A DNA stretch of 64,000 bases from a virus, in IMG/VR virus record IMGVR_UViG_3300046777_002520, positions 96,001 through 160,000 of that record; one strand, given 5' to 3'. The translations under genes and the position numbers were made by a program. Below the pieces are notes generated by a model. That model saw only the letters and a list, made by a program, of their open reading frames with translations. It did no database searches and was not told the DNA's origin. Positions within the stretch are counted from its first letter, which is position 1. Every line of letters starts with the position of its first letter. Below, one piece after another: positions 10,091 to 35,567 of the stretch.

Positions 10091-13000
10091 ATGCCCTCCG
10101 TACTAGACAACGACCTTCCCGAGCAGCCGATCCTCCCGTCAGGACCGGCTGCAACGCCATTGGTACCACCTCCAGCAGGTGTGATGGCTCCTGTGCTGCC
10201 CAAGCCCCAGCCAGAGCCCATGCGCGGCTTTGCCGACATCGACAAGACGCGTCAGGCGATCTATGACGGTGTGCTGGAAGCTGCCAGAGGACTGCCTGAG
10301 TTCTCCAACAACAAGTACAAGCTGCGGCTCGCTGACGTCAACTATGTGGACAGCGACAAGCCCACCATCGCTGAGCGCAAGAAGGCCATTCTGCGCTCGG
10401 AGACATTGGACAGACGACTGCAGGGCACCTGGCAGCTGACCGACCACGAGGGCAACCTGGTCGATGAGCGCAAGGTAACGATGGCGCGCATTCCCAAGCT
10501 GACCAACGGCGGCACGTTTGTGCTGAACGGCGTCGAGTACACGCTCGCCAACCAGGCCCGTCTGCGCCCAGGTGTCTTCACGCGCCAGAAGCAGAACGGC
10601 GAGATCGAGAGCCATGTCAACGTGATGCCTGGCAGAGGCGTCTCCCACCGCTACACGCTGGACCCAGAGAAGGGCACCTTCAAGCTGACCCTTGGTCAAG
10701 CTAACCTGCCCCTCTTTCCTATCCTCAAGGCGCTTGGAGCCACAGACTCCCAGATTCGCGGCGTCTGGGGCAACGAGCTGTACGAGCAGAACGCCAAGCA
10801 GAATGACCCTCAGGCCGTGGACAAGCTGGCCCAGAGGCTGCTGAAGAAGTCCGACATGACGCTGGAGTCTGAAGGCAGGCTCAACAGGCTTCGGGAAGTC
10901 TTCAACAAGATGGAGCTGGACGACACCGTCACGTCCAGAACATTGGGTAAGCCCTATAAGAATCTCTCCGTGGACGCGATTCTCGACTCCACGCGCAAGA
11001 TTCTGGCCGTGCAGCGCAGGGAAGCCGAAGCCGACGACCGTGACGCCATGGCGTATCAGATGGTGTACGGCCCTGAGGACTTCTTCGCTGAGAAGATGCG
11101 CTCAGCCTACAAGGTGATGAATCCGCTGCTGTGGAAGTCCACCTTTAAGAACAACCTCAGCCCTCTTGCCTCCAACTTTCTGGGCAAGCACCTGAACTCG
11201 GCCATTCTGAACTCAGGTTTGGGCCAGCCCTCTGAGGAAGTGAACAACGCTGAGATTCTTGGCCAGCTGACACGCATGAGCCGACTGGGTGAAGGTGGCA
11301 TTCCCTCGCTGGACGCTGTGCCAGACGAGGCTCGCTCCGTGCAGCCGTCCCACTTCGGCTACGTGGACCCGCTGCTGACACCAGAGTCCCTGAAGGTGGG
11401 TGTGGACAGCCGTTTAGCGATGGCGAGCCAGAAGGGCAAGGACGGCAAGATCTACACGAAGTTTCTTAACGTTAAGACTGGAGAGCCTGAGTGGCGCACG
11501 CCTCAGGACGTGGCCGACTCGGTCATCGCGTTTCCCAAGGAGATGGACAATCCCAACGCCAAGACCGTAGCCGCCCTGGTGTCGGGCAAGATCAAGTATG
11601 TGCCCAGGGAGTCCGTGGAGCTGACGCTGCCCCACATGGAGGACTCGTTCAATCCTCTGGTCAACATGATTCCGCTGAAGTCCACCATCAAGGGCCAGCG
11701 CGTGATGATGGGCGCGAGAATGCTGACGCAGGCTCTGCCCCTCAGGGACGCTGAGGCTCCTCTGGTGCAGTCAGGAGTTCCAGGCGACGCGGACGAGTCG
11801 TTTGAGGAGCGCTACGGCAAGTACATGGGCGCGATTCGCTCCGATGTGGAAGGACAGGTCGTCAAGGTGACAGCTGACGAGATTCACGTCAAAGGCCCAG
11901 ACGGCAGAATCCAGACGCACGAGCTGCACAACAACCTGCCCTACAACCGCAAGACCTACCTGCACAACAGCCCCGTGGTGAAGGTGGGCGACATGGTCGG
12001 CAAGGACAGCCTGCTCGCCAAGTCCAACTTCACCAACGACAAGGGGGCTACGGCGCTGGGCCTGAACCTGCGCACGGCCTATATCCCCTACAAGGGCTAC
12101 AACTTTGAAGACGCCACGGTCATCTCCGAGTCAGCAGCCAAGAGGCTGTCCTCGGAGCATATGTACCAGCATGACGTGGAGTTTGACGACAAGACGAAGG
12201 TGAACAAGAAGCACTTCATCTCCATGTATCCGTCCACGTTTGACAGGCAGACGCTGGACAACATCGACGATGATGGCGTCATCAAGCCTGGCACGGTGGT
12301 GAACTCTGGCACTCCGCTCATTCTGCAGGTGCAGGAGAAGGAGCGCGCCCACAACCAGATCACGCGTGGCAGGTCGCCCCTGCACTCGGACTCCTCGGTC
12401 CTCTGGGAGCACCATGACCCAGGCGTCGTCACGGACGTCGAGAAGACCAAGAAGGGCGTCGTGGTGACGGTTAAGAGCTACGCCCAGATGCAGGTGGGTG
12501 ACAAGCTGTCAGGCCGCTACGGCGACAAGGGCGTCATCGCTGACATCGTGCCAGACGACAAGATGCCCAAGGACAGCGAGGGCAGGCCCTTTGAGGTCCT
12601 GGTGAACCCTCTGGGCATCATCACCAGAACCAACCCTGGCCAGATGGTCGAGGCCGTGCTGGGCAAAATTGCCGAGAAGACTGGCAAGCGCTACGCCGTC
12701 AAGGACTTCGACAAGATTCAGGACATGACCGAGTTCGCCAAGGAGGAGCTGCGCAAGCACGGCCTCAGCGACACCGAGGACATCGAGGACCCTGAGATCA
12801 ACCAGAAGATCAAGGGCGTCTTCACGGGCAACCGCTTCTTCATGAAGCTGCACCACATGGCCGAGAGCAAGGGCTCTGGCCGTGGTCTGGGTTCCTACAC
12901 GGCAGAGGAGTCTCCTGCCCGTGGTGGTCCGATGGGCAGCAAGAGAGTCTCGCTGGCTGACAACAACGCGCTGCTGTCCCACGGTGCACTGGAGGTGCTG

Positions 13001-14551
13001 ACGGACGCTGGAGCCATTCGTGGCCAGAAGAACCAGGACTACTGGGCAGCGTTCATGTCGGGCAGAACGCCTCCGCAGCCCCGTGTTCCCCTCGTCTACA
13101 ACAAGTTCTTCGAGCAGCTGCGCTCCGCTGGCATCAATCCCGTGCGCAACGGGCCGCGTGTGCAGATCATGGCGCTGACTGGCAAGGACATCGACAACCT
13201 GGCCGAGGGCAGGGAGATTCAGTCGGCCGAGACGGTGGACTGGAAGGAAGGCCTCAAGCCCATCAAGGGCGGTCTCTTTGACGAGACTCTCACAGGGGGA
13301 CACAACGGCAATCGCTGGAGCTACATCAAGCTGCACGAGCCGATGCCCAGCCCCATCATGGAAGAGCCGATTCGCAGAGTGCTCGGCCTGACGCAGCAGA
13401 AGTTCATGGACGTGCTGGGAGGCAAGGAGAAGCTGGGCGAGGAGACAGGCCCAGAGGCCATCGGCAACGCCCTGAAGCGCATCAACCTGCCAGAGGCCGT
13501 CAAGAGAGCCGAAACCGAGTGGCGCAACAGCAAGCGCTCCACCAAGGACGCGGCCCTGAAGCGCTGGGCGCTGCTGAAGCACACCGAGAAGCTCGGCCTG
13601 CATCCCAGCGAATGGATGCTGGACAAGATTCCCGTGCTGCCTCCAGCGTTTCGTCCCGTCTCCGTCATGGGGGCGAGCGGTAAGCCGTTGGTGTCAGATC
13701 CCAACTATCTCTACAAGGAAGCCTTTGACGCCAACCAGGCGCTGAAGGAGACCGCCAGCTTCTCGAAGGAGCTGGCCGACGAGCGCACAGCCCTCTACAA
13801 GGCGTTCAAGGGCGTCACAGGGCTGGGTGATCCCGTCACGCCCAAGAACCAGGAGAGCAACGTCAAGGGTGTGCTGAAGTACATCTTTGGCGACAATCCC
13901 AAGTTCTCCGTCATGCAGCGCAAGCTGCTTTCCACCACGGTGGACGTGGTCGGCAGAGGCGTCATCTCGCCCAATCCTAATCTCGACATGGACCAGGTCG
14001 GACTGCCTGAGACCAAGGCCTGGGAGATCTACAGGCCGTTCGTCATTCGCAGGCTGGCTCGCAGGGGCATACCAGCCCTAAGAGCTGCCGAGATGGTCGA
14101 GAAGAAGGAGAAGATCGCCAAGGACGCGCTGCAGCAGGAGCTGGACGAGCGTCCTGTCATCATCACGCGCGCTCCCGTGCTGCATCGCTACGGTGTCATG
14201 GCGTTCAAGCCGCAGCTGGTCAAGGCTGAGACGCTGCAGATTCCTCCAGCCATCGTCAAGGGCTTCGGCGCAGACTTCGACGGCGACACGATGAACTACC
14301 ACGTGCCTGTCTCCGAAGGGGCCGTCAAGGACGCTCTGGAGAAGATGCTGCCCAGCAAGAACCTGCTCAGCACCAAGACCTTTCGAGCGCATCAGCTGCC
14401 CCAGAACGAATACCAAGGCGGTCTATACCACGCTACAGCGTTCGTGTCTAATAAACCTGAAAGGTATTTCGCTACAAAAGCTGATGCCATAAAGGCTTAC
14501 AGAAGTGGTGAGATAGGCCCAGACCAGAAGGTGGTCATACTGAACCAGTAA
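10091..14551 (+). CDS. rpoB/rpoC: Multisubunit RNA polymerase: beta fused to the N-terminal half of beta'
   Basis: Beta motifs GGTFVLNG, RLGEGG...HFGYVDP..TPE, GYNFED, GDKLSGRYGDKG, MKLHHM. In frame these continue into beta' motifs GGLFD, PVLPPAFRP, RAPVLHR and the catalytic ADFDGD (14267-14287). Confidence 0.95.
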   Translation: MPSVLDNDLPEQPILPSGPAATPLVPPPAGVMAPVLPKPQPEPMRGFADIDKTRQAIYDGVLEAARGLPEFSNNKYKLRLADVNYVDSDKPTIAERKKAILRSETLDRRLQGTWQLTDHEGNLVDERKVTMARIPKLTNGGTFVLNGVEYTLANQARLRPGVFTRQKQNGEIESHVNVMPGRGVSHRYTLDPEKGTFKLTLGQANLPLFPILKALGATDSQIRGVWGNELYEQNAKQNDPQAVDKLAQRLLKKSDMTLESEGRLNRLREVFNKMELDDTVTSRTLGKPYKNLSVDAILDSTRKILAVQRREAEADDRDAMAYQMVYGPEDFFAEKMRSAYKVMNPLLWKSTFKNNLSPLASNFLGKHLNSAILNSGLGQPSEEVNNAEILGQLTRMSRLGEGGIPSLDAVPDEARSVQPSHFGYVDPLLTPESLKVGVDSRLAMASQKGKDGKIYTKFLNVKTGEPEWRTPQDVADSVIAFPKEMDNPNAKTVAALVSGKIKYVPRESVELTLPHMEDSFNPLVNMIPLKSTIKGQRVMMGARMLTQALPLRDAEAPLVQSGVPGDADESFEERYGKYMGAIRSDVEGQVVKVTADEIHVKGPDGRIQTHELHNNLPYNRKTYLHNSPVVKVGDMVGKDSLLAKSNFTNDKGATALGLNLRTAYIPYKGYNFEDATVISESAAKRLSSEHMYQHDVEFDDKTKVNKKHFISMYPSTFDRQTLDNIDDDGVIKPGTVVNSGTPLILQVQEKERAHNQITRGRSPLHSDSSVLWEHHDPGVVTDVEKTKKGVVVTVKSYAQMQVGDKLSGRYGDKGVIADIVPDDKMPKDSEGRPFEVLVNPLGIITRTNPGQMVEAVLGKIAEKTGKRYAVKDFDKIQDMTEFAKEELRKHGLSDTEDIEDPEINQKIKGVFTGNRFFMKLHHMAESKGSGRGLGSYTAEESPARGGPMGSKRVSLADNNALLSHGALEVLTDAGAIRGQKNQDYWAAFMSGRTPPQPRVPLVYNKFFEQLRSAGINPVRNGPRVQIMALTGKDIDNLAEGREIQSAETVDWKEGLKPIKGGLFDETLTGGHNGNRWSYIKLHEPMPSPIMEEPIRRVLGLTQQKFMDVLGGKEKLGEETGPEAIGNALKRINLPEAVKRAETEWRNSKRSTKDAALKRWALLKHTEKLGLHPSEWMLDKIPVLPPAFRPVSVMGASGKPLVSDPNYLYKEAFDANQALKETASFSKELADERTALYKAFKGVTGLGDPVTPKNQESNVKGVLKYIFGDNPKFSVMQRKLLSTTVDVVGRGVISPNPNLDMDQVGLPETKAWEIYRPFVIRRLARRGIPALRAAEMVEKKEKIAKDALQQELDERPVIITRAPVLHRYGVMAFKPQLVKAETLQIPPAIVKGFGADFDGDTMNYHVPVSEGAVKDALEKMLPSKNLLSTKTFRAHQLPQNEYQGGLYHATAFVSNKPERYFATKADAIKAYRSGEIGPDQKVVILNQ

Positions 14552-15738: not shown

Positions 15739-16518
15739 ATGCCTCTGAATCCCATTCTCATTCAGCAAGTCAAGCAAGCGATGGCGGCTAAGCGCGCCTT
15801 TGTGCCTCCTGGTGGTGGCGCTCCTCCTGGGGGCGACCCTGCGGCGATGGGTGCGGCTGGAGGCGCTCCCCCCATGGACCCTTCGATGATGGGTGCAGCA
15901 GGTGGGGCACCTCCTATGGACCCAGCCATGATGGCTGCAATGGGCGGTGGCGGTGCTCCTCCTATGGACCCGAGCATGATGGGCGGTGCGCCTCCCATGG
16001 ACCCTGCGATGATGGGTGGGGCACCTCCTATGGACCCAGCCATGATGGGCGGCGCTCCTCCGATGGACCCAGCAGCCATGGGTGCAGCCCCTCCTGCGCC
16101 TCCTGCTCCTAGCGCGGCTCCCTCCGAGGAGATCAAGGCGCTGATTCAGGCCGAGATTCAGAAGGCCATGTCGGGTGGCGGCAGCTCAGGTGGCGAGGCC
16201 AAGCCCAAGAGCAAGGGCGCTGGCAAGGTCGATCCCAGCCAGATGATCGAGTACATGGAGCGCCAGCAGAAGCTGCTGATCAACCTGTACGAGAGCCTGG
16301 GTCTCAACCTGCCCTACGACATTCTCGACAAGCCCAAGCCCGAAGGTGGCGATGAGGCCAAGCAGGAGGAAGCTCCCAAGGAGCAGCAGAGCGACACCAA
16401 CGTCTCTGGCATTCCTCCCATCAAGCCGATTGACCCCATTGGTGGCAAGCAGGCCAGCATTCGAGAGAAGGCCGCAGCAGCCCGTTACCTGCTGGCTGCG
16501 CTGAACAAGAAAGGCTGA
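15739..16518 (+). CDS. Pro/Met/Gly repeat protein
   Basis: AAGGAG SD; AAKRAF leader; about six GGAPPMDPxMM units. Confidence 0.8.
   Translation: MPLNPILIQQVKQAMAAKRAFVPPGGGAPPGGDPAAMGAAGGAPPMDPSMMGAAGGAPPMDPAMMAAMGGGGAPPMDPSMMGGAPPMDPAMMGGAPPMDPAMMGGAPPMDPAAMGAAPPAPPAPSAAPSEEIKALIQAEIQKAMSGGGSSGGEAKPKSKGAGKVDPSQMIEYMERQQKLLINLYESLGLNLPYDILDKPKPEGGDEAKQEEAPKEQQSDTNVSGIPPIKPIDPIGGKQASIREKAAAARYLLAALNKKG
15855..16085 (+). repeat. Degenerate 33-bp coding tandem repeat (GGAPPMDPAMM)
   Basis: Units such as GGTGGGGCACCTCCTATGGACCCAGCCATGATG occur twice identically, plus four variants. Confidence 0.85.
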
Positions 16519-16745: not shown

Positions 16746-18653
16746 ATGCCAACGCGCACGACCATAGGCCAGCTACTCGTCAACGAAGCTCTTCCTGAGG
16801 AGTACAGGGACTATGACCGTGTGATGGACAGCAAGACTGTCCAGAAGATCATGCAGTCCGTGGCTGACAAGAACCCTGACCAGTACAGGGATGTCCTGAA
16901 AAGGCTCTTTGACGCTGGCAGGGATGTCGCCTACAGGACGGGTGGCTTCTCGTTCGGCCTGGACTCCCTCAGGACAGCCGTAGCCTCCAAGCGCATTCGC
17001 TACGAGCTGGAGAACAAGATCAACCAGATCCAGTCCACTCCAGGTCTTGACGATAAGACTCGCAACGAGGCCATCGTCAACACGGTGCTTCAGTACCAGA
17101 AGCCCCTGGAAGACGACATCATGGCCGAGTCCAAGGCCGAGCAGAACCCTCTGGCGCTGCAGGTGCTGTCAGGCTCCAGAGGCAAGCCCTCCAACCTGAA
17201 GTCGCTGCGTGGCGGCGACCTGCTGTACACCGACCACAGGGATCGGGCCATTCCCATTCCCGTGCTGAACTCCTTCAGCTCTGGGCTGACGCCTGCCGAG
17301 TACTTCGCTGGCAGCTTCGGTGCCCGTAAGGGTGTCGTCGATACCAAGTTCTCGGTGCAGCACTCTGGCTTCTTCTCCAAGCAGCTCAACCAGCTGGGCC
17401 ACAGGCTGATCGTCACGGCCAAGGACTCCGACGACGAGGAGTTTGTCCGCGACAGGGGTATGCCTGTCGCGGTGGACGATCCCGACAACGAGGGCTCGCT
17501 GCTGGCCATTTCGGTGGCAGGCTATCCGCGCAACACGGCCCTGACGCCCAAGGTTTTGAAGGACCTGCAAGCAAAAGGTATCAAGAAGATAGCCGTGCGT
17601 AGTCCCGTGGCGTCTGGCTCTCCAGACGGAGGCCTGTATGCGCGAGATGTTGGAATTCGTGAGCGTGGGGGCTTACCTGGTGTTGGGGACTTTGTGGGCA
17701 TTGCAGCGGTGCAGGCACTCAGCGAACCAATCTCACAGGGAACCCTGAGCTCCAAGCACAGTGGTGGCGTGGCTGGCGGCAAGTCGATCTCGGGCTTCAA
17801 GGTGCTGAACCAGCTGATTCAGTCTCCAAAGCAGTCGCCCTACTGGGCCTCACACGCCCAGATGGACGGCAAGATCTCGGCCATACAGCCTGCCCCCACG
17901 GGTGGCAGCTTCGTCTACATCAAGGACATGCCCCACTACGTCAACCCAGAAGCCGCCATCAAGTACAAGGTGGGCGATGAGGTGGAAGCTGGGGACATTC
18001 TGTCCGACGGCGTGCCCAATCCTGCCGAGTTCGTCAAGCACAAGGGTCTTGGCGAAGGCAGACGGCAGTTCGTCAACGCCTTCAGGTCGTCGATGCAGGA
18101 AGCAGGCCTGGGAGCGCACCGTAGAAACATCGAGATGCTGTCACGTGGTGTCATCAACCATGTGCGCCTCAACGATGCCGTGGGCGACTATATGCCTGAT
18201 GACATCATTCCTTACGACATGTTTGAGAGAAACTGGCAGCCTAGAGCTGGCAATAAGCAGGTAGCTATCAATGCTGCCAAGGGTAAGTATCTAGAAAAGC
18301 CTATTTTGCACTACACGGTTGGTACAAGGTTAACTCCTAGCGTTATGAAGGAGCTTAACGACTTCAATATTAAAGACGTTACAGTACACGACGAACCTCC
18401 ACCGTTTGAGCCTCACTTCTTGCGTGGATTAGACAATTTACAGTATGATCCAGATTGGATGACTCGTATGTTGGGTTCCAATCTGCAGAAGTCAACGCTT
18501 AAGGCTGTCTGGTCTGGAGCCACGTCTGACGAGTCTGGTACTTCATTTGTGCCTTCTCTGGCCAAGTCTGTCGGCTTCGGGCAGGGCGGCAAGATCAAGA
18601 GCTACGACCCCAAGGAAGTAGCCAAGCCATCCAGCGACGGCGGTGTTCTATGA
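16746..18653 (+). CDS. rpoC: RNA polymerase beta' C-terminal subunit
   Basis: TTIGQ, SGSRG, bridge helix GLTPAEYFAGSFGARKGVVDT, trigger loop ALSEPISQGTLSSKHSGG, and GDILSDG. Confidence 0.93.
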   Translation: MPTRTTIGQLLVNEALPEEYRDYDRVMDSKTVQKIMQSVADKNPDQYRDVLKRLFDAGRDVAYRTGGFSFGLDSLRTAVASKRIRYELENKINQIQSTPGLDDKTRNEAIVNTVLQYQKPLEDDIMAESKAEQNPLALQVLSGSRGKPSNLKSLRGGDLLYTDHRDRAIPIPVLNSFSSGLTPAEYFAGSFGARKGVVDTKFSVQHSGFFSKQLNQLGHRLIVTAKDSDDEEFVRDRGMPVAVDDPDNEGSLLAISVAGYPRNTALTPKVLKDLQAKGIKKIAVRSPVASGSPDGGLYARDVGIRERGGLPGVGDFVGIAAVQALSEPISQGTLSSKHSGGVAGGKSISGFKVLNQLIQSPKQSPYWASHAQMDGKISAIQPAPTGGSFVYIKDMPHYVNPEAAIKYKVGDEVEAGDILSDGVPNPAEFVKHKGLGEGRRQFVNAFRSSMQEAGLGAHRRNIEMLSRGVINHVRLNDAVGDYMPDDIIPYDMFERNWQPRAGNKQVAINAAKGKYLEKPILHYTVGTRLTPSVMKELNDFNIKDVTVHDEPPPFEPHFLRGLDNLQYDPDWMTRMLGSNLQKSTLKAVWSGATSDESGTSFVPSLAKSVGFGQGGKIKSYDPKEVAKPSSDGGVL

Positions 18654-19771: not shown

Positions 19772-22210
19772 ATGACAGACATCACCAAGCTGGCTGAGCA
19801 GGCTGCTGACCAAGTTATCAGCGAGACCTCTGCCAAGAAGAAAAAGAAGAAAACCTCTCCTGCGTGGTTGCTGGCTCCTGCTGGCCTGGGAGCCGCAGCT
19901 GGGCTTGGTGGTGCTTACGCTCTGGCGTCAGACTCGCACGCTGCCAACCTAAGCAAGGCCATAGAGAACAGCAAGACGCCTCTAGGCCCAGACGAGACTC
20001 CACTCACACGTTACACGCAGACCATGAGCCAGCTGGCCAACTCCACGCCAGGTGGTGTGCCTATTGGCGAGATTTTGGCCAAGGCCCGATCTTCCGCTGA
20101 CCTGATGAAGCGAGTCGGTATCGGTGAAGCCTACGCTGCCACCACTCCTGGAGCTTTTCAAGAAGCGCGTATGCACTACGACGCTTTCAGAAAAGGCCCT
20201 ATTGCAGCGTTGTATCACATGATGCAGCCAGAAGCCAGAGGCAATACGGCCATTCCTCAGGAACTGGTGCCAGACAGACTCAAGGGAAAAGTGAACAACT
20301 ACGGCGAAGCCATGAATCCCCATTTCAGGGACGCTTGGAAGAAATTCGTCGCCAAGAAGCTGCCAGGAGCTGCTGGTTGGATCTCCCCTCTGGAGATTGA
20401 CACCAAGGTCATTCCGTACAAGGACCAGCTTGAGTTCTTCAAGGAATATGAGAACAGCATTCCAGCCGATCTCAAGGCCCTGCGCAAGAACGTTGAAGGC
20501 GGTATGGGTGAAGGCCTGGCTGGCAACACCAGAAACTATATGCCCATAGCCGAGTCTGCCCTGAAAGCTAGACAGCTGATGAAGAACGTCGGCATCACCT
20601 CGGCAGGCGCTGGCGCAGGCGGTCTGTTGGGCCACTACCTGCACGGAGCGCTGGCTGATCAGGAGAACCCCAGCACTCTGGGCTATCTGGCCTCGACGCT
20701 GGGTGGCGCAGGTCTGGGTGGAGCAGCCAGTTATTTCGGCGGTACCGAGCAGGGCAGGCAGCAGGCCTCCAACCTGATCGGCAAGCTGATGTCGATGATG
20801 CAGAAGAAGTCCGCTGCTGGCGACAAGATCGAGTCGTCCTCGGTAACAGATCCAAAAGCCAAAGACTATCTTCCCAAGCCAGGCACACAGACCTATTACG
20901 CCAACGAGGATACAGGCTACAAGACTATGCCTACTCCAGGCAGTCCTGAAGACCTGAAGATGAAACAACAGGCTCTAGGACCCGTAGGCCCAGGCGCGCC
21001 AGCTCCCGCAGCGCCTCCTGCAGCTCCTGCGCCTCAGGCTACCCAACCTGCCCCAGCTCCAGCGCCTGCTCCTGCTCCCCAGCAGGGCAACTGGCTCAGC
21101 AACCTGCCGACATCCCAGGCCCTGGTGCCTCTGGGGGGTATGGCTCTGGGTGGTCTGGTAGGCAACATGATGGGCGGTGGTGACGAGGACGAGGAACCCA
21201 GCACACTCAGAAGGCTTCTTTACACTCTGGGCGGCGTTGGCTTGGGCGGCGCTGCTGGTTACTTTGGCGGTACTTCACAAGGGAGAGAAACGATGTCCAA
21301 CGCATACAACAGCCTTTTCGGCAAGAAGCAGGCAGCAGCCAACAAGCTCAACGGTCTGCTGAGCAAGAAGGCAGCCGAGAAATGCGACTGCTGCAAGAAG
21401 ACACCCTGCCAGTGTCCTCCTGACTGCTCCTGCGGCTGCAAGCAGAAGATGGCTGCTAGCAAGCCTGGGCTGTGGGCCAACATTCACGCCAAGAAGCAGC
21501 GTGGTGAAGCGCCTGCCAAGCCTGGCGACAAGGACTATCCCGACGCCAAGAACTGGAAGAAAGTGACGGAGGAGTCCGAGAAGAAGGCTCTGTTCGGCTT
21601 TGGGGCCAAGAAGCCCAAGGGCATGACCGTAGAAGAAGCTTCCAAGCTGGTCGATCCGATGCTGATGGCCAGAGCGGCTATGCTCAACGAGCTGTTCGAG
21701 GCGTCGCAGGACCCGACAGGCAAGGCTGTGCGCAAGAAGTTCAAGAACCCCCAGTTCAGGTCCATGTTCTTTGAGGGCATGACTCCTGAGATGTATGACG
21801 CCGTGTCAGTACCTGCCGAGAAGAAGGCCTCGCCTGCCTGGCAGACCTCCGAAGGCAAGAGCGAGTCTGGCGGTCTGAACGACAAGGGCCGAGCCAGCCT
21901 CAAGGCGCAGGGACACGACATCAAGCGTCCCCAGCCTGAGGGCGGTCCCCGTAAGGACAGCTTCTGCGCCCGTATGAAGGGCATGAAGTCCAAGCTGACC
22001 TCGGAAGAGACGGCCAGAGATCCCGACAGCCGCATCAACAAGGCACTGCGCAAGTGGAAGTGCGGCAGCGCCAACGAGAAGATGGCGGCTCTGGCCGAAC
22101 TTGCAGCCAACACGCTGGGCAAGGCCATCGAAGGACCCAGGAAGGAAAAAGGATCTGGCATCAAGATCCAAATCGGCTCGGCCGCTCCCATCGCCAACTT
22201 CTTCCGCTAA
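19772..22210 (+). CDS. Modular K-x-A-punctuated polyprotein, putative internal head cargo
   Basis: 812 aa; duplicated zipper module, Cys-rich peptide, and GLWANIHAK and AWQTSEGK...FCARM modules separated by KKxA sites. Confidence 0.85.
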   Translation: MTDITKLAEQAADQVISETSAKKKKKKTSPAWLLAPAGLGAAAGLGGAYALASDSHAANLSKAIENSKTPLGPDETPLTRYTQTMSQLANSTPGGVPIGEILAKARSSADLMKRVGIGEAYAATTPGAFQEARMHYDAFRKGPIAALYHMMQPEARGNTAIPQELVPDRLKGKVNNYGEAMNPHFRDAWKKFVAKKLPGAAGWISPLEIDTKVIPYKDQLEFFKEYENSIPADLKALRKNVEGGMGEGLAGNTRNYMPIAESALKARQLMKNVGITSAGAGAGGLLGHYLHGALADQENPSTLGYLASTLGGAGLGGAASYFGGTEQGRQQASNLIGKLMSMMQKKSAAGDKIESSSVTDPKAKDYLPKPGTQTYYANEDTGYKTMPTPGSPEDLKMKQQALGPVGPGAPAPAAPPAAPAPQATQPAPAPAPAPAPQQGNWLSNLPTSQALVPLGGMALGGLVGNMMGGGDEDEEPSTLRRLLYTLGGVGLGGAAGYFGGTSQGRETMSNAYNSLFGKKQAAANKLNGLLSKKAAEKCDCCKKTPCQCPPDCSCGCKQKMAASKPGLWANIHAKKQRGEAPAKPGDKDYPDAKNWKKVTEESEKKALFGFGAKKPKGMTVEEASKLVDPMLMARAAMLNELFEASQDPTGKAVRKKFKNPQFRSMFFEGMTPEMYDAVSVPAEKKASPAWQTSEGKSESGGLNDKGRASLKAQGHDIKRPQPEGGPRKDSFCARMKGMKSKLTSEETARDPDSRINKALRKWKCGSANEKMAALAELAANTLGKAIEGPRKEKGSGIKIQIGSAAPIANFFR

Positions 22211-22267: not shown

Positions 22268-22633
22268 ATGAACGCCAGAATACAACTCATCAAAGCCGTG
22301 CTGGCCGCAGGCACTGAGAAGTCCGCTCAGAACCTGCAGCAAACCCTTGCCAAGGCAGCAGCCTGCTGGAAGGGCTACGAGCGCGTCCCTGGCACCAAGG
22401 CTATGACACCTGGCTCATGCAGGCCCGTCGGTGAGGGCAAGGACAAAAAGAAAAAAGAAAAGAAGGCGTTCATCAACAGCGCGCGTGAGGCTCTGGGCAA
22501 GTATGTGCAGGAGAAGACTGATCCTGCCAGCTACATCAATACCGACAACCTTGAAGCCATTCTCAAGCACTACTCCAAGGTCAAGCCCCAGCTGCTCAGG
22601 CTTTTGCAGGAAGAGCAGGAGCTAGAGCAGTGA
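22268..22633 (+). CDS. Small K-x-A protein with a CWKGY module
   Basis: EKSA, AKAAA-CWKGYERVPGTK...SCRP, EKKAF. Confidence 0.75.
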   Translation: MNARIQLIKAVLAAGTEKSAQNLQQTLAKAAACWKGYERVPGTKAMTPGSCRPVGEGKDKKKKEKKAFINSAREALGKYVQEKTDPASYINTDNLEAILKHYSKVKPQLLRLLQEEQELEQ

Positions 22634-22634
22634 T

Positions 22635-24113
22635 ATGAGCAAACCAGACCTCAACCTGGCTTTGCGCTATCTGGAGCATAAACAGGCTGCCATCAATCCC
22701 GATGTCACGCCTCAGGAACACCAACAGCGTGTGGCTGACAGGCTGTCTGGGGCCAACCCCAGGCTGCTTGTCTACCACGGTCTAGGCACGGGCAAGTCCC
22801 TTGCCTCCATTCTTGCGGCTGAGCAGGCTGGCGGCGATTATGGCATAGTCGCCCCAGCCGCTTTGCGCCAGAACTTCAACAAGGAAATCGAGAAGTTCAC
22901 GGAAGGCAGCAACCCTGAGGTGATGTCCTACACGGGTCTCGGCATGGGCAAGCAGTTTGCCAAGCAGCCAGAGACGCTGATCGTGGACGAGGCGCATAGG
23001 CTGCGCAATCCGTCTGGCAAGGCCAACAAGGCCATCGCGGACCAAGCTGCCAAAGCCAAGCGCCTGATGCTGCTGACAGGCTCACCCATCGTCAACTCGC
23101 CCACAGACCTGGCGGCTCCCATCAGCCTGCTCAACAACATCAACTTGTCTCCAGAGAAGTTTGAAGAGGACTTCATCGACTACAAGAAGGTCAACCCTGG
23201 CTTCTTCGCCAGTCTGCGTGGCGTGACGGCTGGAGAGAAGCCAGCCATCAAGAACGAGGCCAGGCTGCGCGAGCTGCTCAAGGGTAAGGTCGATTACCAG
23301 CCCAGCAAGACTCCAGAGGGCGTCTCCGTCAACGAGGAGATCGTCGATGCGCCCATGTCTGCGGACCAGGAGCGCATTCAGAACGCCATTCGCAAAAAGA
23401 TCCCTCTCAAGTTCCTGTGGAAGCTCGACAAGGAGTTCCCCCTGTCCAGAAACGAGATCACCAAGCTGAACGCTTTTCTGTCAGGCCTCAGGCAGGTGTC
23501 TCTGTCCACGCAGCCGTTTCGGGCTGACAAGGACCCCCTCAAGTCGTTCGAGCAGTCTGGTAAGCTGACCACGGCCATGAACAAGCTCAAGGACTTGCTG
23601 GCGTCTGATCCGCGTAAGAAAGCAATCATCTACTCCAACTTCGTGCAGTCAGGTCTGGACCCTTACGCTGCAGCCCTGGCCAAGGAAAAGATACCGTACG
23701 GCTACTTCCATGGCGGTATCAGCGAAGCGGATAGGAAGAAAGCTGTAGACGAGTATAATGCAGGTAAGCTCAAGGCTCTATTGATTGGACCAGCTGGTGC
23801 AGAGGGTTTAAGCACCAAGGGAACAAGTCTTATACAGCTTTTGGACCCTTACTGGAATGAGACTAGGTCTAACCAGGCACAAGGCAGGGGTTTACGCTTT
23901 GATTCCCATATAGGTTTACCTGAAGAACTTAAAGACGTTAAAGTACAGAAGTTTATCAGCAAGGGTCAGCAGCCTTCCACATTGATGCGATGGCTCGGTG
24001 CCAAACCAGTCAGGACAGGCGATGAGATGCTGCAGTCTATGGCTGCATCCAAGGAAGAGCTGAACGAGCGCTTCAAGAAGCTGCTGCAGGAAGAGGGGTC
24101 CAAGCGTGAATAA
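22635..24113 (+). CDS. SF2 (SNF2 / D6-D11-like) helicase-ATPase
   Basis: Motif I YHGLGTGKS, II DEAH, III LTGSP, IV IIYSNF, V GAEGLS, VI QAQGRGLRFDSH. Confidence 0.9.
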   Translation: MSKPDLNLALRYLEHKQAAINPDVTPQEHQQRVADRLSGANPRLLVYHGLGTGKSLASILAAEQAGGDYGIVAPAALRQNFNKEIEKFTEGSNPEVMSYTGLGMGKQFAKQPETLIVDEAHRLRNPSGKANKAIADQAAKAKRLMLLTGSPIVNSPTDLAAPISLLNNINLSPEKFEEDFIDYKKVNPGFFASLRGVTAGEKPAIKNEARLRELLKGKVDYQPSKTPEGVSVNEEIVDAPMSADQERIQNAIRKKIPLKFLWKLDKEFPLSRNEITKLNAFLSGLRQVSLSTQPFRADKDPLKSFEQSGKLTTAMNKLKDLLASDPRKKAIIYSNFVQSGLDPYAAALAKEKIPYGYFHGGISEADRKKAVDEYNAGKLKALLIGPAGAEGLSTKGTSLIQLLDPYWNETRSNQAQGRGLRFDSHIGLPEELKDVKVQKFISKGQQPSTLMRWLGAKPVRTGDEMLQSMAASKEELNERFKKLLQEEGSKRE

Positions 24114-28409: not shown

Positions 28410-29368
28410 TGCTTGTAAACCTCACGCGGGACAATCCGCAACGGCCTCCAGATTGGCGTTGGCTCAAGGCTTCCAAGTACACGGACGCAAACCGTGTCAT
28501 ACCAAGAAGCCACAGAGACAGGCATATCTGGGAGGCCGTTGAGTTTGCGCAGCGGCTGCGGGATCTTCCCACCAACCAGGAGGAAGCCGCTTTTGAGATG
28601 GTCGGACTGTCTGTGGACTTTCCAGAAATCTCACAGGCTTACGACATCTACGACAACACGGGACCAAACGGATTCAGATGGGAGCTGGAAGCAAGAATAC
28701 TGGCTAATGAGTCGTTTGAGGAGATATCCAAGAAGTCCAGTACTTCTGTAGCTGTTCTGGAAACATACGAGAACCTGTTCTTTAACGTATTGGATCGGCT
28801 TGAAGCTTGGACATGGGTTCTTAACTGCGTCATAGGTCGGTCAGTACACGCTGGTATGACCGAAAGAGACTATGACCTTCTATGGAAGTTGTATGGCTAC
28901 GTAGGTGGTCCTTTCTTTGTAGACATTCTGACTAACAAGACAGGTATGCACGAGAAAGTCAAACCTAAATCAATACAAGAAGCCCTTAATATGATGCGCG
29001 ATTCTACTGAAACTAACGCTACTGTTGTGGCAGCAAAAGGGTTTACTCTTACTCCTGTCAACAGTTTTACTATTGCTGGTTTAATTGCAATAGAGCAAAA
29101 CTATAGACAGATAACCAAGGAGTCTGCTGGTATCTCTGCTGCTCAGAATTGGCTGCAGCTGGCTGGCTCTGTTATGTCGCGTTTGCCACACTGTTCTGGA
29201 AATGATAAGATAAACCAACCTGTGTTGAATGCGCTAAGAGAAAAGTATGACAATACACCTGCTGAGTTGAGAGCACACGAAGCTATCTTAGTGGCTAATG
29301 GAGAAACGCTACAAGGTATTGAAAACGAAAGGCTACCAGAGCCAGAGGCTAAAGATGGCAATGAGTAG
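28409..29368 (+). CDS. Hypothetical protein (319 aa)
   Basis: TGATG coupling; long ORF. Confidence 0.8.
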   Translation: MLVNLTRDNPQRPPDWRWLKASKYTDANRVIPRSHRDRHIWEAVEFAQRLRDLPTNQEEAAFEMVGLSVDFPEISQAYDIYDNTGPNGFRWELEARILANESFEEISKKSSTSVAVLETYENLFFNVLDRLEAWTWVLNCVIGRSVHAGMTERDYDLLWKLYGYVGGPFFVDILTNKTGMHEKVKPKSIQEALNMMRDSTETNATVVAAKGFTLTPVNSFTIAGLIAIEQNYRQITKESAGISAAQNWLQLAGSVMSRLPHCSGNDKINQPVLNALREKYDNTPAELRAHEAILVANGETLQGIENERLPEPEAKDGNE

Positions 29369-30761
29369 GTTGAGCAAACAAGCCGAGCAGCGTCTGACCG
29401 AGGCCCTTGAGAAAGTGGCCACGTTGGTGTCTGAGGGAGAACATCCCAACGATGCCATTGTCAAAGTCGCCAGCGACGGTGGCATTCCAGCAGGTCACGT
29501 CAACCTGATGGTCACGGCCTTCAACACGGGCCGCACTGAGACGCAGCGCAAGATCGGCCAGGACATCTTCGAGAAGTCTGCCGAGTTTGATCTCGCTGAC
29601 GCCGAAGAGATCCTCAACCGAATGTACCCCAAGGAAGTGAAGTCGGCAGCCGCAGCACGGCTGTCGTCTGTCGTTTCCGAGGAGTATGCAGCGCCGCCCA
29701 CGTGGCATCGCGACAGCATCAAGAAGGCCACCTTCAACCAGGAGCTGCCTCCCCTGACCACCAGGGCTGGCACCGTGGTCAAGAGCGTGGAGCCTCTGCC
29801 TGCCGATCCCGTGCTGGCGATGAAGAAGGCCCACTGCCAGGCAGCCGACACCCGTCGCGAGCTGGAGAACCGCCGCGCCGAGGTCTCCAACCTGCAGGAC
29901 AACCTGATCAGCTCGATCACCAAGCTGGCCGAGTACTTCCGTCAGCCTGGCTGCGAGCCGTACCTGGGCGTGAAGGGCAACATGGTGCGCCTGTTCGACA
30001 AGAAGGCGTCCGCTCTGTTCAAGATGCTGGAAACCCGCAATCCCAGGCTGATCAAGCAGGCTGGCGACGGCAGCGAGTTCTACTCGCTGGTCAACTTCCA
30101 GAAGGAGCCGTACGCTCTGGTGCGCAAGTGCCTGACCGAGGCCGAGGTCCTGGTCGAGAAGCAGGCCTCCTTCAACGAGTTCGAGAAGCAGGCCAAGGCG
30201 CAGATCGAGGAAAAGCTGCTCCCTTTTGCCCAAAGCCAGGACCCATCAAGAACACCTGGGGTCCTGGCGTCTGTTGAGAAGACCGCAGCCGATCTGTTCG
30301 GCCTGGCTTCTCCGTTCAGCGCCTCCAGCACCATGCTGGGCTTTGACTCGGCTGCCGACAGGCTCAACAAGGCCATCGGTGCCGAGATTGCCGAATCCCA
30401 GCTTGGGACCAAGCAGAAAGCTCTTGGCAAGGTCATGAGCGAGCTGGAAGACCCCAAGCACATCGGCAAGCTGCGCAATCTGCAGGCTTCGTCGCTGCTG
30501 ACAGGGCTTATGGCCAACGATGACGTCATCAGCGGTTACGACCCTGAGGAAGTCATGGGCCACTACAACGAGCTGAGCCAGATCGCTCCGCGAGCCGCCC
30601 TGCATGAGGGCATCATGCGCGCCATGCTGCGACGCAGGCTGGCTGGCGGCAGCAGCGCCATTGATCCGTACGAGATCGGTGAGGTTCTCAAGTTCGAGAA
30701 CCAGCTCAAGGAGCGCGACACCGATCCTTACAAGAAGAAATCCCCTCCTGGCGTCATCTGA
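29355..30761 (+). CDS. Helical head-module protein, dense in K-x-A motifs
   Basis: ATG 29355 (track start 29298 is TTG); KQAE, KVAS, KSAE, KSAA, KQAG, KQAS, KTAA. Confidence 0.85.
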   Translation: MAMSRLSKQAEQRLTEALEKVATLVSEGEHPNDAIVKVASDGGIPAGHVNLMVTAFNTGRTETQRKIGQDIFEKSAEFDLADAEEILNRMYPKEVKSAAAARLSSVVSEEYAAPPTWHRDSIKKATFNQELPPLTTRAGTVVKSVEPLPADPVLAMKKAHCQAADTRRELENRRAEVSNLQDNLISSITKLAEYFRQPGCEPYLGVKGNMVRLFDKKASALFKMLETRNPRLIKQAGDGSEFYSLVNFQKEPYALVRKCLTEAEVLVEKQASFNEFEKQAKAQIEEKLLPFAQSQDPSRTPGVLASVEKTAADLFGLASPFSASSTMLGFDSAADRLNKAIGAEIAESQLGTKQKALGKVMSELEDPKHIGKLRNLQASSLLTGLMANDDVISGYDPEEVMGHYNELSQIAPRAALHEGIMRAMLRRRLAGGSSAIDPYEIGEVLKFENQLKERDTDPYKKKSPPGVI

Positions 30762-30773
30762 GTAGGAGCTGTC

Positions 30774-32321
30774 ATGGACCTCGAAAAAGTTGCTTCCGAA
30801 CTGGCTCAAAAGGCTGTTGCCGTCCGTAACTCTGACACGCGACTGGCTCCTGGCGAATACCCAGCCTGGGCCTCTGAGTTCAAAAAGCTGGCCGAGGAGC
30901 ACTACGCCGAGCTCGGCCTGGCCAAGGAAGCAGCTGGCGAGGACTACAACCCGTACAGCCGCTACGACCAGGCTGTGCAGGGCAATGAGGTCCTGTCCAA
31001 CCCTCTGGTGCGCAACGCGCTGGTGACTGGCGGTCTTGGCGCGGGTGTCGGCGCTCTGGGCTCGCTGGCGTCTAATCTCCTGTCCAAAAAGAGGAAAAAG
31101 CGCTATCTGTCTGACGCTCTGTCGGCTGGCCTGATGGGCGGCTTGGCAGGCGGTGTGGGTGGCGCTGGTTACACAGCTTTGACCGACAACAAGGCCACCA
31201 ACGATCTTGTCGGGCAGGTCAGCAAGGCTTTGGGTGGCACCAAGCCGCCTCCAGCCAACCGTAACGCTGCTCTGGAAGGCGAGAGAGCCGCCATCGAAGA
31301 CAAGACCATGGGTCAACTTAACCCAGCGCTTGCTAAGGCTCAAACATTCGGCAATATGGCAGCCGCAGGCGTGGGCCTCAAAAAGCCTGTGACTGCTTTG
31401 GGTAAAGGATTGGCAACTGGTCAATTCACCACGACGGCTGACACAGCCAAAATGCTCAGCCACGCTGAGCAGCAGCTGAACGCTTTCAGAGACTCGCTGG
31501 CTGATAGCAGCAAAAAAGGTTTGCCGACAGGCAACAGGCAAGCGATATTCAATGACTTTTTGAAAGAACACAATCTTGTTGATACCAATGGCGTTATCAA
31601 GGTCAAAGACCCCAGACACCTGTCAGCTGCGCTGCAGGATCTTAAAAATCTAAACTCAAGAACAGAGGCACCGCCAACGCCTATACCCCCTGCAGCACCA
31701 AGCGCCTCAGGCAGAAGACTAAGTAAACCAATCGACACCAATACTTTGCTGCACAATATCATGGGGACAAACGCTTCCCCCACTTCGGCTACCCTGACCA
31801 CAGGAGCTAGTCCTGGTGTTCTGCAGTCGTTCAGCAACCCTGAGCTGGCTGCACGCAGACTCAACGCTATGACTAGAGGCGGTGCCTTGAGCGCCGCTGA
31901 AGCGGCTAATTTTATAAACCAAGGCTATGCAAAGCCTTCTCCTGCACTCGTTTCATTGTCCAACAACCCTCCTGGCGCTAAAAGCTACAGATTTTATGAT
32001 GGCAAGGGATTGGCCAGAGCCGCTTTGCCTTCCGTCAAAGGCTCGGTAGGTGCCGCAGGTCTGGCGTTGGCTAGCAACTACGGCCTGCCGTATCTCAACA
32101 ACAACCCAGAAGCCAGAACCGAGAACACCCAGAGCTTCCTCGACAAGCTGCGTCAGGACATGGCTACAGCCAAGTCTCCAGAGATCGCTGGCAGCAGAGA
32201 GCAGATCCTCAAATCTCTGGACGAACTGCGCAGCGGTCTGGGTAGCGACCTCGAAAGGACCGACGTCCGCGACCTCTTCGACAAGCTTAACGACATTGTG
32301 CCCCAGAGGAGTCAGAACTAA
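30774..32321 (+). CDS. Glycine-zipper protein with variable C-terminal region
   Basis: EKVAS and KEAA leader, then NALVTGGLGAGVGALG...KKRKKR...GLMGGLAGGVGG. Confidence 0.8.
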   Translation: MDLEKVASELAQKAVAVRNSDTRLAPGEYPAWASEFKKLAEEHYAELGLAKEAAGEDYNPYSRYDQAVQGNEVLSNPLVRNALVTGGLGAGVGALGSLASNLLSKKRKKRYLSDALSAGLMGGLAGGVGGAGYTALTDNKATNDLVGQVSKALGGTKPPPANRNAALEGERAAIEDKTMGQLNPALAKAQTFGNMAAAGVGLKKPVTALGKGLATGQFTTTADTAKMLSHAEQQLNAFRDSLADSSKKGLPTGNRQAIFNDFLKEHNLVDTNGVIKVKDPRHLSAALQDLKNLNSRTEAPPTPIPPAAPSASGRRLSKPIDTNTLLHNIMGTNASPTSATLTTGASPGVLQSFSNPELAARRLNAMTRGGALSAAEAANFINQGYAKPSPALVSLSNNPPGAKSYRFYDGKGLARAALPSVKGSVGAAGLALASNYGLPYLNNNPEARTENTQSFLDKLRQDMATAKSPEIAGSREQILKSLDELRSGLGSDLERTDVRDLFDKLNDIVPQRSQN

Positions 32322-33781
32322 TGATCAAGATCATCTCTCCCGACTCCCAGACCTTCGACGTTCCGACCATGGAAATGGTCAAGATGTCGAACCGAGGTCT
32401 GCGTGGCGACGACCTGCGCTCCTTTGTGAAAAGGGCTGGCCATGAATTCGCTGACAAGCTCCGCGATGTGCATGTTGCGCCAGGTGAGCAGCTTGTTCAC
32501 CTTATCGCTATCGGTTCTACTGAAGCTTACGGTCCTAACCGTAACGGAGATGGTTTCAAGTCTGCGACTTGTAGAAAGTACCATCCAACATTTGTTAAGC
32601 ACGCCAGATGGTACCGAAACCACCAGAACAAGGATGAGTCCAAGAGCTACGGCATCATCAAGATGTCGGCGTTTAACGAGGCGATGAAGCGCATCGAGCT
32701 GCTTGTCGCCTTGAATGGCACCAAGGAAGCTGCAGACCGTAATGGCGGTTTGATAGCTGACAAAGAGATGCAGAAGATTGCATCTGGCTCTGGAGACTGG
32801 GGTGTCTCCATGGCGTGTAGGGTTCCTTTCGACGTATGCTCTGGCTGTGGCAATAAAGCGCCCAGTAGAGCTCAGTACTGCAAGGAAGCTAGCTGCAAGT
32901 ATGGTGGCTGCTACAACAACCTGACCAAGGTCGCTGAAGATGGCCACGTTCTACACGTCGATAATCCTGAGCCTACTTGGTTTGATATTTCTGACGTATA
33001 TAGACCAGCCGACAGAATAGCTTACGTCTTCGGCCACATGAAAGCAGCCAGCCACGGTGGCGTGGGTGGCGCGCTGCTGGCTGAGGAGCTGGGCGTCACG
33101 GCTCCCTACCGTCTGAACCTCGACTCTTTCGACGACAGGTCGATGCAGCTGATCAAGCTGGCTTACGAGCTGGCCGAGCTGGAGAACGATCTGGAGTCTG
33201 GCAGAATGGGCACCTCCCTGAAGGATGCCGTCATTCTTAACGATAAGACTGCCAGCCTGAAGGACATTCCCACGGGACGACTCACCACGCTGCAGATCTG
33301 GCGTGCGCTGAGCCGTGAGAAAGTGGCCCTGAGCGTCAAGGACTGGCTCGATGTCATCAGCCAGGACACCGACAATCTGGCCATCAAGAGCGCTTCCGCA
33401 GCAGAGATCAGCAGAGCTCTGCCAGGAGTGTTCAGCAGGCTTGTGGCTGACAACGTCAACCTTGAGCACTGCATCAGCGAGCGTACTTGTGATCCTTCCA
33501 TGGCTTTTCCTGGAGAGCGTGTTCAGGAATGGGCTACGAAGATAGCCAGTGCGAAATCGATTAACCCTAATCACTTCGAGAGAAGGGTTATGAGGCAAGC
33601 TGTAACTGGTTCGGAGAAGCGTGCTAGCTTTTCTGACAGCAAGGTCGCTGTTAGCGCCGAAGCTGAGCAGTTAGCTAGACGCTATGGTACTTATCAGTTA
33701 TATTTCCTAAACGAACTTAGGAATGATTCGAATTTCGGCTGGTATAAGGAGCACGCTGTTCGTTCCAATTACTTAGCTTGA
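32321..33781 (+). CDS. Prohead (maturation) protease with Zn-finger insert
   Basis: PNRNGDGF, candidate His RNHQN, candidate Ser VSMAC, and CSGC...YC...C; lies immediately upstream of scaffold/decoration/MCP. Confidence 0.7.
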   Translation: MIKIISPDSQTFDVPTMEMVKMSNRGLRGDDLRSFVKRAGHEFADKLRDVHVAPGEQLVHLIAIGSTEAYGPNRNGDGFKSATCRKYHPTFVKHARWYRNHQNKDESKSYGIIKMSAFNEAMKRIELLVALNGTKEAADRNGGLIADKEMQKIASGSGDWGVSMACRVPFDVCSGCGNKAPSRAQYCKEASCKYGGCYNNLTKVAEDGHVLHVDNPEPTWFDISDVYRPADRIAYVFGHMKAASHGGVGGALLAEELGVTAPYRLNLDSFDDRSMQLIKLAYELAELENDLESGRMGTSLKDAVILNDKTASLKDIPTGRLTTLQIWRALSREKVALSVKDWLDVISQDTDNLAIKSASAAEISRALPGVFSRLVADNVNLEHCISERTCDPSMAFPGERVQEWATKIASAKSINPNHFERRVMRQAVTGSEKRASFSDSKVAVSAEAEQLARRYGTYQLYFLNELRNDSNFGWYKEHAVRSNYLA

Positions 33782-33806: not shown

Positions 33807-33867
33807 CTTGGTGTTCTATAGTGACAATCTAAGTTAGGTGTCTGATACTGACACAAGGAGTTTAATC

Positions 33868-35183: not shown

Positions 35184-35567
35184 ATGAGCGACCTGAACGC
35201 TGTTGTTGATTACGTCGAGTGCAGCGCTGCTGCTCTCGACGCTGCCGAGAAGATTATCAAGCAAGCGGAAGATGCCCAGAAGAAGGCTTCTGAGAAGATC
35301 GCCGCTGTGGTTGACGCCCTCATCGCGCATGAGCGTATCGACCCCAAAGACCGCGAAAAGTGCGCGGCTATGCTGAAGGACCCAGTCAAGGTGCTGGAAA
35401 TCCTTGAAAAGACTGCTGACACGAATCGCACGATTCGTCCTCATCAGCTTGGTAAAGCCGTTCAGGAGAAGAAGGCCTCAGCTTCCTCTCCCTACGTTGG
35501 CTTGCGTTCTTCCCAGGCGCGTGCCAGTGATCTGCGGTTTGACGAGGTCCTGGGTATTAACGGTTGA
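35184..35567 (+). CDS. Small helical head protein
   Basis: GGGAGG SD; KQAE, KKAS, EKKAS. Confidence 0.75.
   Translation: MSDLNAVVDYVECSAAALDAAEKIIKQAEDAQKKASEKIAAVVDALIAHERIDPKDREKCAAMLKDPVKVLEILEKTADTNRTIRPHQLGKAVQEKKASASSPYVGLRSSQARASDLRFDEVLGING

Follow-up and report, generated by a model that had tools for sequence, protein, structure and literature searches.

Internal head proteins of tailed phages

The principle of internal head proteins processed by a prohead protease is known from T4 and from phiKZ-like phages. The T4 internal proteins (IPI, IPII, IPIII and Alt) are small and basic, are targeted to the prohead by a leader that is cut at a three-residue motif, and are ejected with the DNA (PMC9026906). 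The inner-body and ejection proteins of phiKZ, 201phi2-1 and SPN3US are processed by gp175/gp245 at S/A/G-x-E and have propeptides with several redundant sites (PMC10052503, PMC9026906); the cuts identified in SPN3US, the protease's own aside, all remove N-terminal propeptides (PMC10052503). The present analysis concerns an open reading frame (ORF) of 812 amino acids at positions 19772-22210 (+ strand) of a 64,000-nucleotide stretch of DNA, here called the window, which comprises bases 96001-160000 of one 191,966-bp contig of an uncultured phage (IMG/VR record IMGVR_UViG_3300046777_002520). The ORF lies within a head-assembly block and contains several independently conserved units split by one repeated short motif, K-x-A. 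With a probability of roughly 0.7, it encodes a precursor polyprotein of capsid-internal proteins that is cut after the Ala of x-K-x-A by a prohead protease of the gp21 fold, and that includes a slot whose content varies among relatives.

Like the T4 internal proteins, this locus has a cargo set that varies between related phages and is accompanied by a protease with a gp21-like fold, and two of its modules, here called GLWANIHAK (GLW) and DUF6321, occur with T4-like leaders in phages P-SSM7 and S-CREM1. Whereas every T4 protein has a gene and a leader of its own, some eight pieces are joined here in a single ORF with a site at each junction, and the predicted cleavage motif is x-K-x-A, with a small residue at P1 and Lys at P3, rather than L/I-x-E. 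The likeness to the phiKZ group lies in the large phage, the probably virion-packaged multisubunit RNA polymerase and the many head proteins that would be processed at one short motif. In contrast to SPN3US, the stretches bounded by the sites are conserved modules known elsewhere as genes of their own, and the motif differs; no sequence homology was found to the inner-body or ejection proteins of phiKZ, 201phi2-1 or SPN3US. The African swine fever virus polyproteins pp220 and pp62 (GG-X sites) and the adenovirus precursors are cut at a repeated short motif by a virion protease into core components, some of them small and basic. The comparison with these two viruses is one of analogy only, as there is no homology and both the protease families and the virion architecture are different.

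Placement of K-x-A in the 812-amino-acid protein

An earlier note, made from the letters of the window and their translations, described this protein as a string of modules bounded exactly by KKxA sites. All of the peptides that it quoted were found in the order given, and K-x-A proved to be the invariant part of the site; the first Lys is loose, the residue preceding K-x-A being E, K, Q or S. The motif stands at amino acids 6-8, 346-348, 519-521, 532-535 (overlapping KKA and KAA), 559-561, 604-606, 684-686 and 770-772. The total of nine is not above chance, with 11.2 expected from composition. Because the count matches expectation, the raw number was dropped as evidence and the placement of the motif is considered instead. 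All nine motifs lie at module edges that were set independently by homology and none lies inside a module, which upholds the coincidence of edges and sites proposed in the note. More specifically, the 337-amino-acid interior of the first large module, N1, has no K-x-A where 3.8 are expected (P = 0.02).

The protein opens with a short leader, MTDITKLA (amino acids 1-8; 19772-19795), which ends in the first K-x-A, the putative motif of the phage's own protease, and is a candidate capsid-targeting leader that would be cleaved; neighbouring head-module ORFs open with similar short leaders that also end in K-x-A. Module N1 follows (amino acids 9-348; 19796-20815). It is all-helical, ends in ...QKKSA, and includes one clearly hydrophobic N-terminal helix (amino acids ~29-52) and two Gly-zipper-like helices. 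GxxxG repeats are visible in the sequence; no Pfam family, Gly-zipper_YMGG and Gly-zipper_Omp included, matched amino acids 1-296 or 297-523 at E <= 5, the Gly-zipper leads for N1 from Atlas were weak (feature score 0.75, TM <= 0.6 on short models), and the N1 fold search returned generic helical matches only (Z < 6), none of them informative. Speculatively, N1 would suit a membrane-active ejection protein. An AlphaFold2 (AF2) model of the whole protein has a per-residue confidence (predicted local distance difference test, pLDDT) of 80-95 for amino acids ~30-345, which drops below 50 exactly from amino acid 348; confidence is low for amino acids 1-27 and for everything past 348. Because of this, the small modules past amino acid 348 are defined by homology and not by structure.

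The first of these downstream segments, M2 (amino acids 349-521; 20816-21334), consists of a Pro/Ala-rich spacer and a second Gly-zipper copy and ends in ...GKKQA; the duplication of a Gly-rich module noted earlier is real, with amino acids ~283-344 and ~460-520 sharing 55% identity over 62 amino acids (E = 6e-8). A 14-amino-acid spacer ending in SKKAA (amino acids 522-535; 21335-21376, from the translation) leads to a Cys-rich peptide (amino acids 536-561; 21377-21454) that has 8 Cys in 26 residues, arranged as C.CC...C.C...C.C.C, and ends in KQKMA. This 26-mer looks like a metal-thiolate peptide, although neither it nor the cassettes in the orthologues' slot matched any Pfam family. The basic GLWANIHAK module (amino acids 562-606; 21455-21589), to which several PHROG families match at amino acids ~561-605, ends in SEKKA and is followed by the 80-residue LFGFG cassette (amino acids 607-686; 21590-21829), which fills the variable slot and ends in AEKKA. 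The DUF6321 module (amino acids 687-772; 21830-22087) is basic with a net charge of +8, has two conserved Cys and is succeeded by the linker GSANEKMA; the Pfam family (PF19846) matches at amino acids 695-762 over profile positions 1-72 of 72, where it scores 55.1 bits, or 60.2 when only the module is used as query, the cutoff being 28.5. A C-terminal tail of 40 amino acids (amino acids 773-812; 22088-22210 with the stop codon) completes the protein and is ~50-100% identical where orthologues keep it. The small modules of the ORF are basic, with net charges from +2 to +8.

Homologue boundaries

Each segment between K-x-A sites was searched separately, and wherever a segment has homologues, these begin or end at the sites. 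The earlier note had named homology that continues past the sites as the result that would speak against its proposal, and none was seen; where GLW and DUF6321 occur together in T4-like cyanophages, the sequence that links them is unrelated and bears [LIV]-x-E. With amino acids 1-523 as query, HMMER was run exhaustively over 1.84 billion representatives and returned 89 cluster representatives for N1, whose matches span query positions ~5-350 and end at ~334-350. These homologues are either stand-alone proteins (~330-370 amino acids) or the start, middle or end of proteins of 600-1600 amino acids. N1 forms the protein C-terminus in 27 of 61 distant homologues, and where the chain continues, K-x-A occurs within 6 amino acids of the extrapolated module end in 16 of 34 (null 8%, P = 2e-9). 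The junction with whatever precedes N1 also usually carries K-x-A, fusions to an SNF2 helicase included. In the window the SNF2-type helicase is a separate gene two genes downstream (22635-24113), and in the related proteins P0146, P0155 and P0166 it is fused to the N-terminus of N1, with K-x-A at the junction in P0146 and P0166 (EKAA, KAA/KPA) and EKKG in P0155.

The statement in the earlier note that the GLWANIHAK and DUF6321 modules occur as small stand-alone or fused proteins in many phages was also correct. Stand-alone GLWANIHAK proteins are 49 amino acids long and start MAKPGLYANIHAK, and in the relative L005 the protein begins directly at this module. DUF6321 is matched by 492 phage records, mostly of cyanophages and pelagiphages, and among the ORFs that were fetched, a Met lies within 6 amino acids of the domain start in 58 of 83. 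The stand-alone form typically starts MAK-SPAW, compared with KKA-SPAW in the 812-amino-acid ORF, and its homologues mostly end at W(K/N)C, 8 amino acids ahead of the next site in that ORF. DUF6321 is here one bead of a larger chain, as against the usual stand-alone protein of ~85 amino acids. No paper mentioning DUF6321 was found in the searchable literature, and no function is assigned to the family. When the whole protein was compared with its homologues by unforced BLAST, 36 of the 118 ends of alignments lay no more than 3 amino acids from a site, where 7% are expected; because the hits are mutually related, this figure is a description and not a probability.

A variable slot with identical junctions

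The architecture of the ORF is widespread. Its 22 orthologues retain N1, the Cys peptide (carried by 14 of the 22), GLW and DUF6321, and mostly the tail as well. Their alignments to GLW and to DUF6321 cover each module in full (1-45 of 45 and 1-86 of 86), and the Cys peptide, 75-100% identical in its 14 carriers, always stands between two K-x-A sites. Other parts come and go in units that begin and end at the motif. The block of amino acids 349-535 is present or absent among orthologues from one K-x-A to the next, and the M2 block is missing from L004, P0128-P0132 and others by a deletion that likewise reaches from one K-x-A to another. The 14-residue spacer is repeated in P0126 as KQA-AANRLHSLLSKKQA-AANKLHSLLSKRA, some relatives have an extra N-terminal Gly-zipper module ending in ESTEKAA, and in P0124, P0125 and P0127 the tail is swapped, after KLA, for a CW-GYERVPG module. 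The same build recurs in a neighbouring ORF of 121 amino acids (22268-22633, + strand), which by its translation consists of a leader, EKSA, KAA, a CWKGYERVPG...SC module, EKKA and a tail.

Variation is also found between GLW and DUF6321, in a slot that extends from ...SEKKA to SPAWQ. It is empty in L004, P0128 and P0129. The LFGFG cassette occupies it only in the window ORF, P0122, P0124 and P0141, and elsewhere it holds unrelated inserts of 100, 128, 154 or 160-166 amino acids or a double insert of 305 amino acids that is divided by KKA-SV-KKA-TEQSE-KKA. About six unrelated kinds of insert have been found in all, each flanked by K-x-A and each ending in it. LFGFG itself was found only in close orthologues: neither a search of 5.8 billion proteins nor the 91 loci that were fetched gave a stand-alone-sized homologue, and none came from another lineage. 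At the nucleotide level, both EKKA junctions around LFGFG are encoded by an 11-nucleotide direct repeat, GAGAAGAAGGC (within 21566-21601 and 21806-21841), a microhomology that could mediate gain and loss of the cassette.

This repeat bears on the principal alternative, namely that the protein is an essentially intact multi-domain ejection protein, perhaps minus its leader, in which K-x-A sites are flexible linkers or recombination junctions. Microhomology at the junctions could explain the exchange of cassettes by itself, large multi-domain ejection proteins are common in phages, and no cut has been observed. We regard this explanation as unlikely, on account of where else the motif occurs in the genome and what replaces it in another phage lineage.

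Distribution of the motif across the genome

The ORF shares its + strand block with genes for an RNA polymerase, the SNF2-type helicase, a scaffold-like protein and a major capsid protein that is recognisable only weakly. Occurrences of E-K-x-A were counted in a simple ORF set across the whole genome, with the head module taken as the + strand ORFs at 5.0-37.6 kb of the window. The head module has 34 where 5.4 are expected (6-fold; P ~ 1e-16), and the rest of the genome has 10 where 13 are expected. Composition was ruled out as the cause of this enrichment, as seven permuted control motifs are enriched 2-fold at most; the limits of the module were partly preset, but the effect is judged far too large to stem from the choice of window alone. 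Cleavage by host signal peptidase (A-x-A after a hydrophobic core) was considered and dropped, since the sites lie within the proteins, are hydrophilic and occur in head-module proteins only.

Within the head module the motif is distributed in two ways. K-x-A falls within the first 30 amino acids in 17 of 29 head-module proteins as compared with 15 of 176 others, and several putative internal proteins have it in an N-terminal leader only and are depleted of it in the remainder. The scaffold-like proteins, on the other hand, contain 5-14 K-x-A each. The major capsid protein (36188-37120, + strand; phrog_2522, major head protein) has exactly one K-x-A, at amino acids 26-28 within MEKRA (amino acids 24-28), and a scaffold-like protein of 127 amino acids (35184-35567, + strand) has five [E/Q]-K-x-A sites; its weak PHROG match is to the C-terminal part of head maturation protease fusions. 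Were K-x-A a linker or recombination junction, neither its position at the N-terminus of the capsid protein nor its density in scaffold-like proteins that have no modules to recombine would be expected, and nor would its depletion inside the mature bodies of internal proteins.

The enrichment of K-x-A in N-terminal leaders fits a further proposal, that the motif is a binding or targeting tag that docks each module on, for example, the scaffold or portal and is not scissile. In T4 capsid-targeting sequences, some 10 residues serve for both targeting and processing (PMC9026906). However, a tag for docking alone should not be so dense in scaffold proteins, nor would selection against it be expected inside mature domains, and we consider this proposal quite improbable.

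Two head-module proteins without an assigned family, at 29298-30761 (487 amino acids) and 33838-35163 (441 amino acids, very acidic), contain 14 and 11 K-x-A where 4.5 and 6.8 are expected; both probably belong to the scaffold or core and are broken down in maturation. A 259-amino-acid protein at 15739-16518, conserved in L004, is composed of about eight tandem GGAPPMDP(S/A)MM units and has its K-x-A clustered near both ends. The RNA polymerase is encoded as a fusion of beta and the N-terminal part of beta' (10091-14551, 1486 amino acids) and a separate C-terminal part of beta' (16746-18653, 635 amino acids), the latter with one K-x-A where 3.2 are expected.

Among cultured phages the nearest relatives are Salmonella phage Arash and Vibrio phages D69, D148 and D181, Arash and D69 being nevertheless distant, and Bacillus phage G is further removed. 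The major capsid protein shares 32% identity with that of Arash and with its homologue in D69; these two have LVKEA and LTKEA, respectively, at amino acids ~25-29, and the scaffold-like proteins of Arash and D69 have 8-10 K-x-A sites. The motif is thus conserved in cultured relatives. Virions of Arash contain RNA polymerase subunits, which are among their most abundant proteins, and the helicase gp217 (PMC10585845); this supports the view that the head block encodes packaged proteins, and by analogy with its Arash homologue the RNA polymerase of the window is probably packaged as well. For phage G, the paper examined yielded no cleavage motif.

A candidate prohead protease

A protein of 486 amino acids at 32321-33781 (+ strand) is the candidate for the enzyme. 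It consists of an N-terminal domain (amino acids ~15-225) and a helical C-terminal part that contains K-x-A. An AF2 model built on 26 homologues (pLDDT 72) shares the catalytic-domain fold of T4 gp21 and the herpesvirus assemblins. In an exhaustive structural alignment its best match is T4 gp21 (5jbl_A; Z 7.4, root-mean-square deviation 3.4 A, 137 of 165 residues), followed by the varicella-zoster virus (VZV) protease at Z 4.8, 2.6 Z units below, with the human cytomegalovirus (HCMV) protease also listed. Foldseek against the PDB gave no match for the model at E <= 0.001. The protein has more than 1100 homologues, all without annotation, on contigs of up to ~230 kb, and in a diverse set of 26 of them His60, His101 and Ser163 do not vary. 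Inside the predicted protease domain an E-K-x-A motif (consensus MEKLA, here MQKIA) at amino acids 149-154, 9 residues before Ser163, is nearly invariant; it could be a place where the enzyme cuts itself, or belong to the substrate groove.

The same modules in T4-like cyanophages

Modules of the ORF are shared with the T4-GC119 proteins of T4-like cyanophages (among them S-E7 AYR02000.1, S-SCSM1_29, S-SSM5_108, P-SSM7_194 and S-CREM1_179), which have DUF6321, GLW and CW-GY modules in common with this phage. They differ in having [LIV]-x-E junctions and in being without N1, the Cys peptide and LFGFG, and they belong to another phage lineage with another protease. Several of these proteins (P-SSM7_194 at L001 2965-3483, S-CREM1_179 at L087 1594-1869, and those of L002, L085, L086, L088, L089 and L090) are strings of small, basic, Cys-containing modules: DUF6321, GLW, CW-GY-..-C and KDACYHKVK..., with [LIV]-x-E between several of them. 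The CW-GYERVPG module of the neighbouring 121-amino-acid ORF is also found among them. Two T4-GC119 proteins are annotated as virion or structural, and the sequences suggest that the group comprises unrecognised internal head proteins of T4-like cyanophages.

In these phages [LIV]-x-E stands directly before DUF6321 in 7 of 9 proteins, which come from different genera and whose upstream sequences are mutually unrelated, and [LI]-x-E stands directly before GLW in 4 of 4. S-CREM1_179 begins MKTYNDFITE and P-SSM7_194 begins MKTYSQFIEE, both of which we take to be close to the 10-residue capsid-targeting sequence of T4 IPIII, a sequence whose function, though not its letters, is given in a review of T4 (PMC9026906). 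No paper linking capsid-targeting sequences to cyanophage proteins was found, the T4 review aside. The junction motif therefore shifts with the protease of the lineage while the cargo stays constant, as is predicted for a scissile junction and not for a mere linker. The established gp21 motif and a leader that resembles a capsid-targeting sequence at the same module edges argue against the intact multi-domain protein, and the replacement of K-x-A by a protease motif at equivalent junctions is not expected of a docking tag either. That the ORF is a spurious fusion of several small genes, through chance or faulty assembly, may practically be set aside despite a K-x-A count at compositional expectation, since the same architecture recurs in independent assemblies at 54-97% identity (P0122-P0133, L004) and chance falls far short of explaining either where the motifs are placed or how enriched they are in the head module.

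Points that weigh against processing

Several observations count against the proposal that the ORF is a processed precursor. Cleavage, the position of the cut after Ala, and the retention and ejection of the products are all inferred and not read from peptides, and the paper that reports the virion proteome of Arash does not mention cleavage (PMC10585845). As for the enzyme, the score against gp21 is moderate (Z 7.4), the Foldseek match to 5jbl_B (probability 0.75, E = 0.65) is not significant, the protein at 32321-33781 was matched neither by a protease family of Pfam or PHROG nor by any sequence in the PDB, and the catalytic role of the invariant His60, His101 and Ser163 is putative. Furthermore, the beads past amino acid 348 are drawn from homology in a region of low AF2 confidence, some related junctions read EKKG or are without the motif (L005; P0155), and K-x-A is short enough that some copies in Lys/Ala-rich linkers could be due to composition alone.

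A possible route from precursor to ejected peptides

If the ORF is indeed a processed precursor, the short N-terminal leader, other parts of the protein or both would bring it into the assembling prohead, where the phage's own protease of gp21 fold (32321-33781) would cut after the Ala of each x-K-x-A. This would release a helical, Gly-zipper-bearing protein of 340 amino acids, possibly a membrane-active ejection protein, together with a second Gly-zipper fragment, the Cys-rich 26-mer and the basic GLWANIHAK, LFGFG and DUF6321 peptides. The freed peptides would remain with the packaged DNA, and are probably ejected. The variability of the slot between GLWANIHAK and DUF6321 among relatives would follow from its identical short junctions, which would let cassettes be gained, lost and swapped.

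A more far-reaching view, which we put forward tentatively and hold to be somewhat less probable than its opposite, is that the precursor serves as a payload rack, in which any peptide set between two K-x-A would enter the capsid, be released there by cleavage and be injected together with the DNA. Such a slot would be a fast-evolving bay for host-takeover or anti-defence peptides, and marine phage lineages that are unrelated would exchange micro-cargo (DUF6321, GLWANIHAK, CW-GY and more) from a common pool, with the junction re-coded for each protease (K-x-A here, [LIV]-x-E in T4-like cyanophages).

Implications for phage biology

In the searchable literature no description was found of the K-x-A motif, of a polyprotein layout with free-standing modules, of the variable slot or of the role implied for DUF6321 and GLWANIHAK. 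If the cuts are real, they would represent a new prohead-protease specificity, with Lys at P3 and Ala at P1, in a gp21-fold enzyme with more than 1100 homologues, and the two cultured relatives Arash and Vibrio phage D69 allow that specificity to be tested directly. DUF6321 and GLWANIHAK, which are known from about 500 sequenced, mostly marine phages and have no literature, would be protease-released capsid cargo. The slot with its identical junctions would offer a natural system in which to see how phages diversify their injected content, and it suggests a simple tag with which, in bench work on phages, foreign peptides could be loaded into the capsids of this clade. More broadly, real cuts would mean that a polyprotein can be the source of internal proteins in tailed phages too, whereas this strategy is otherwise tied to large eukaryotic DNA viruses.

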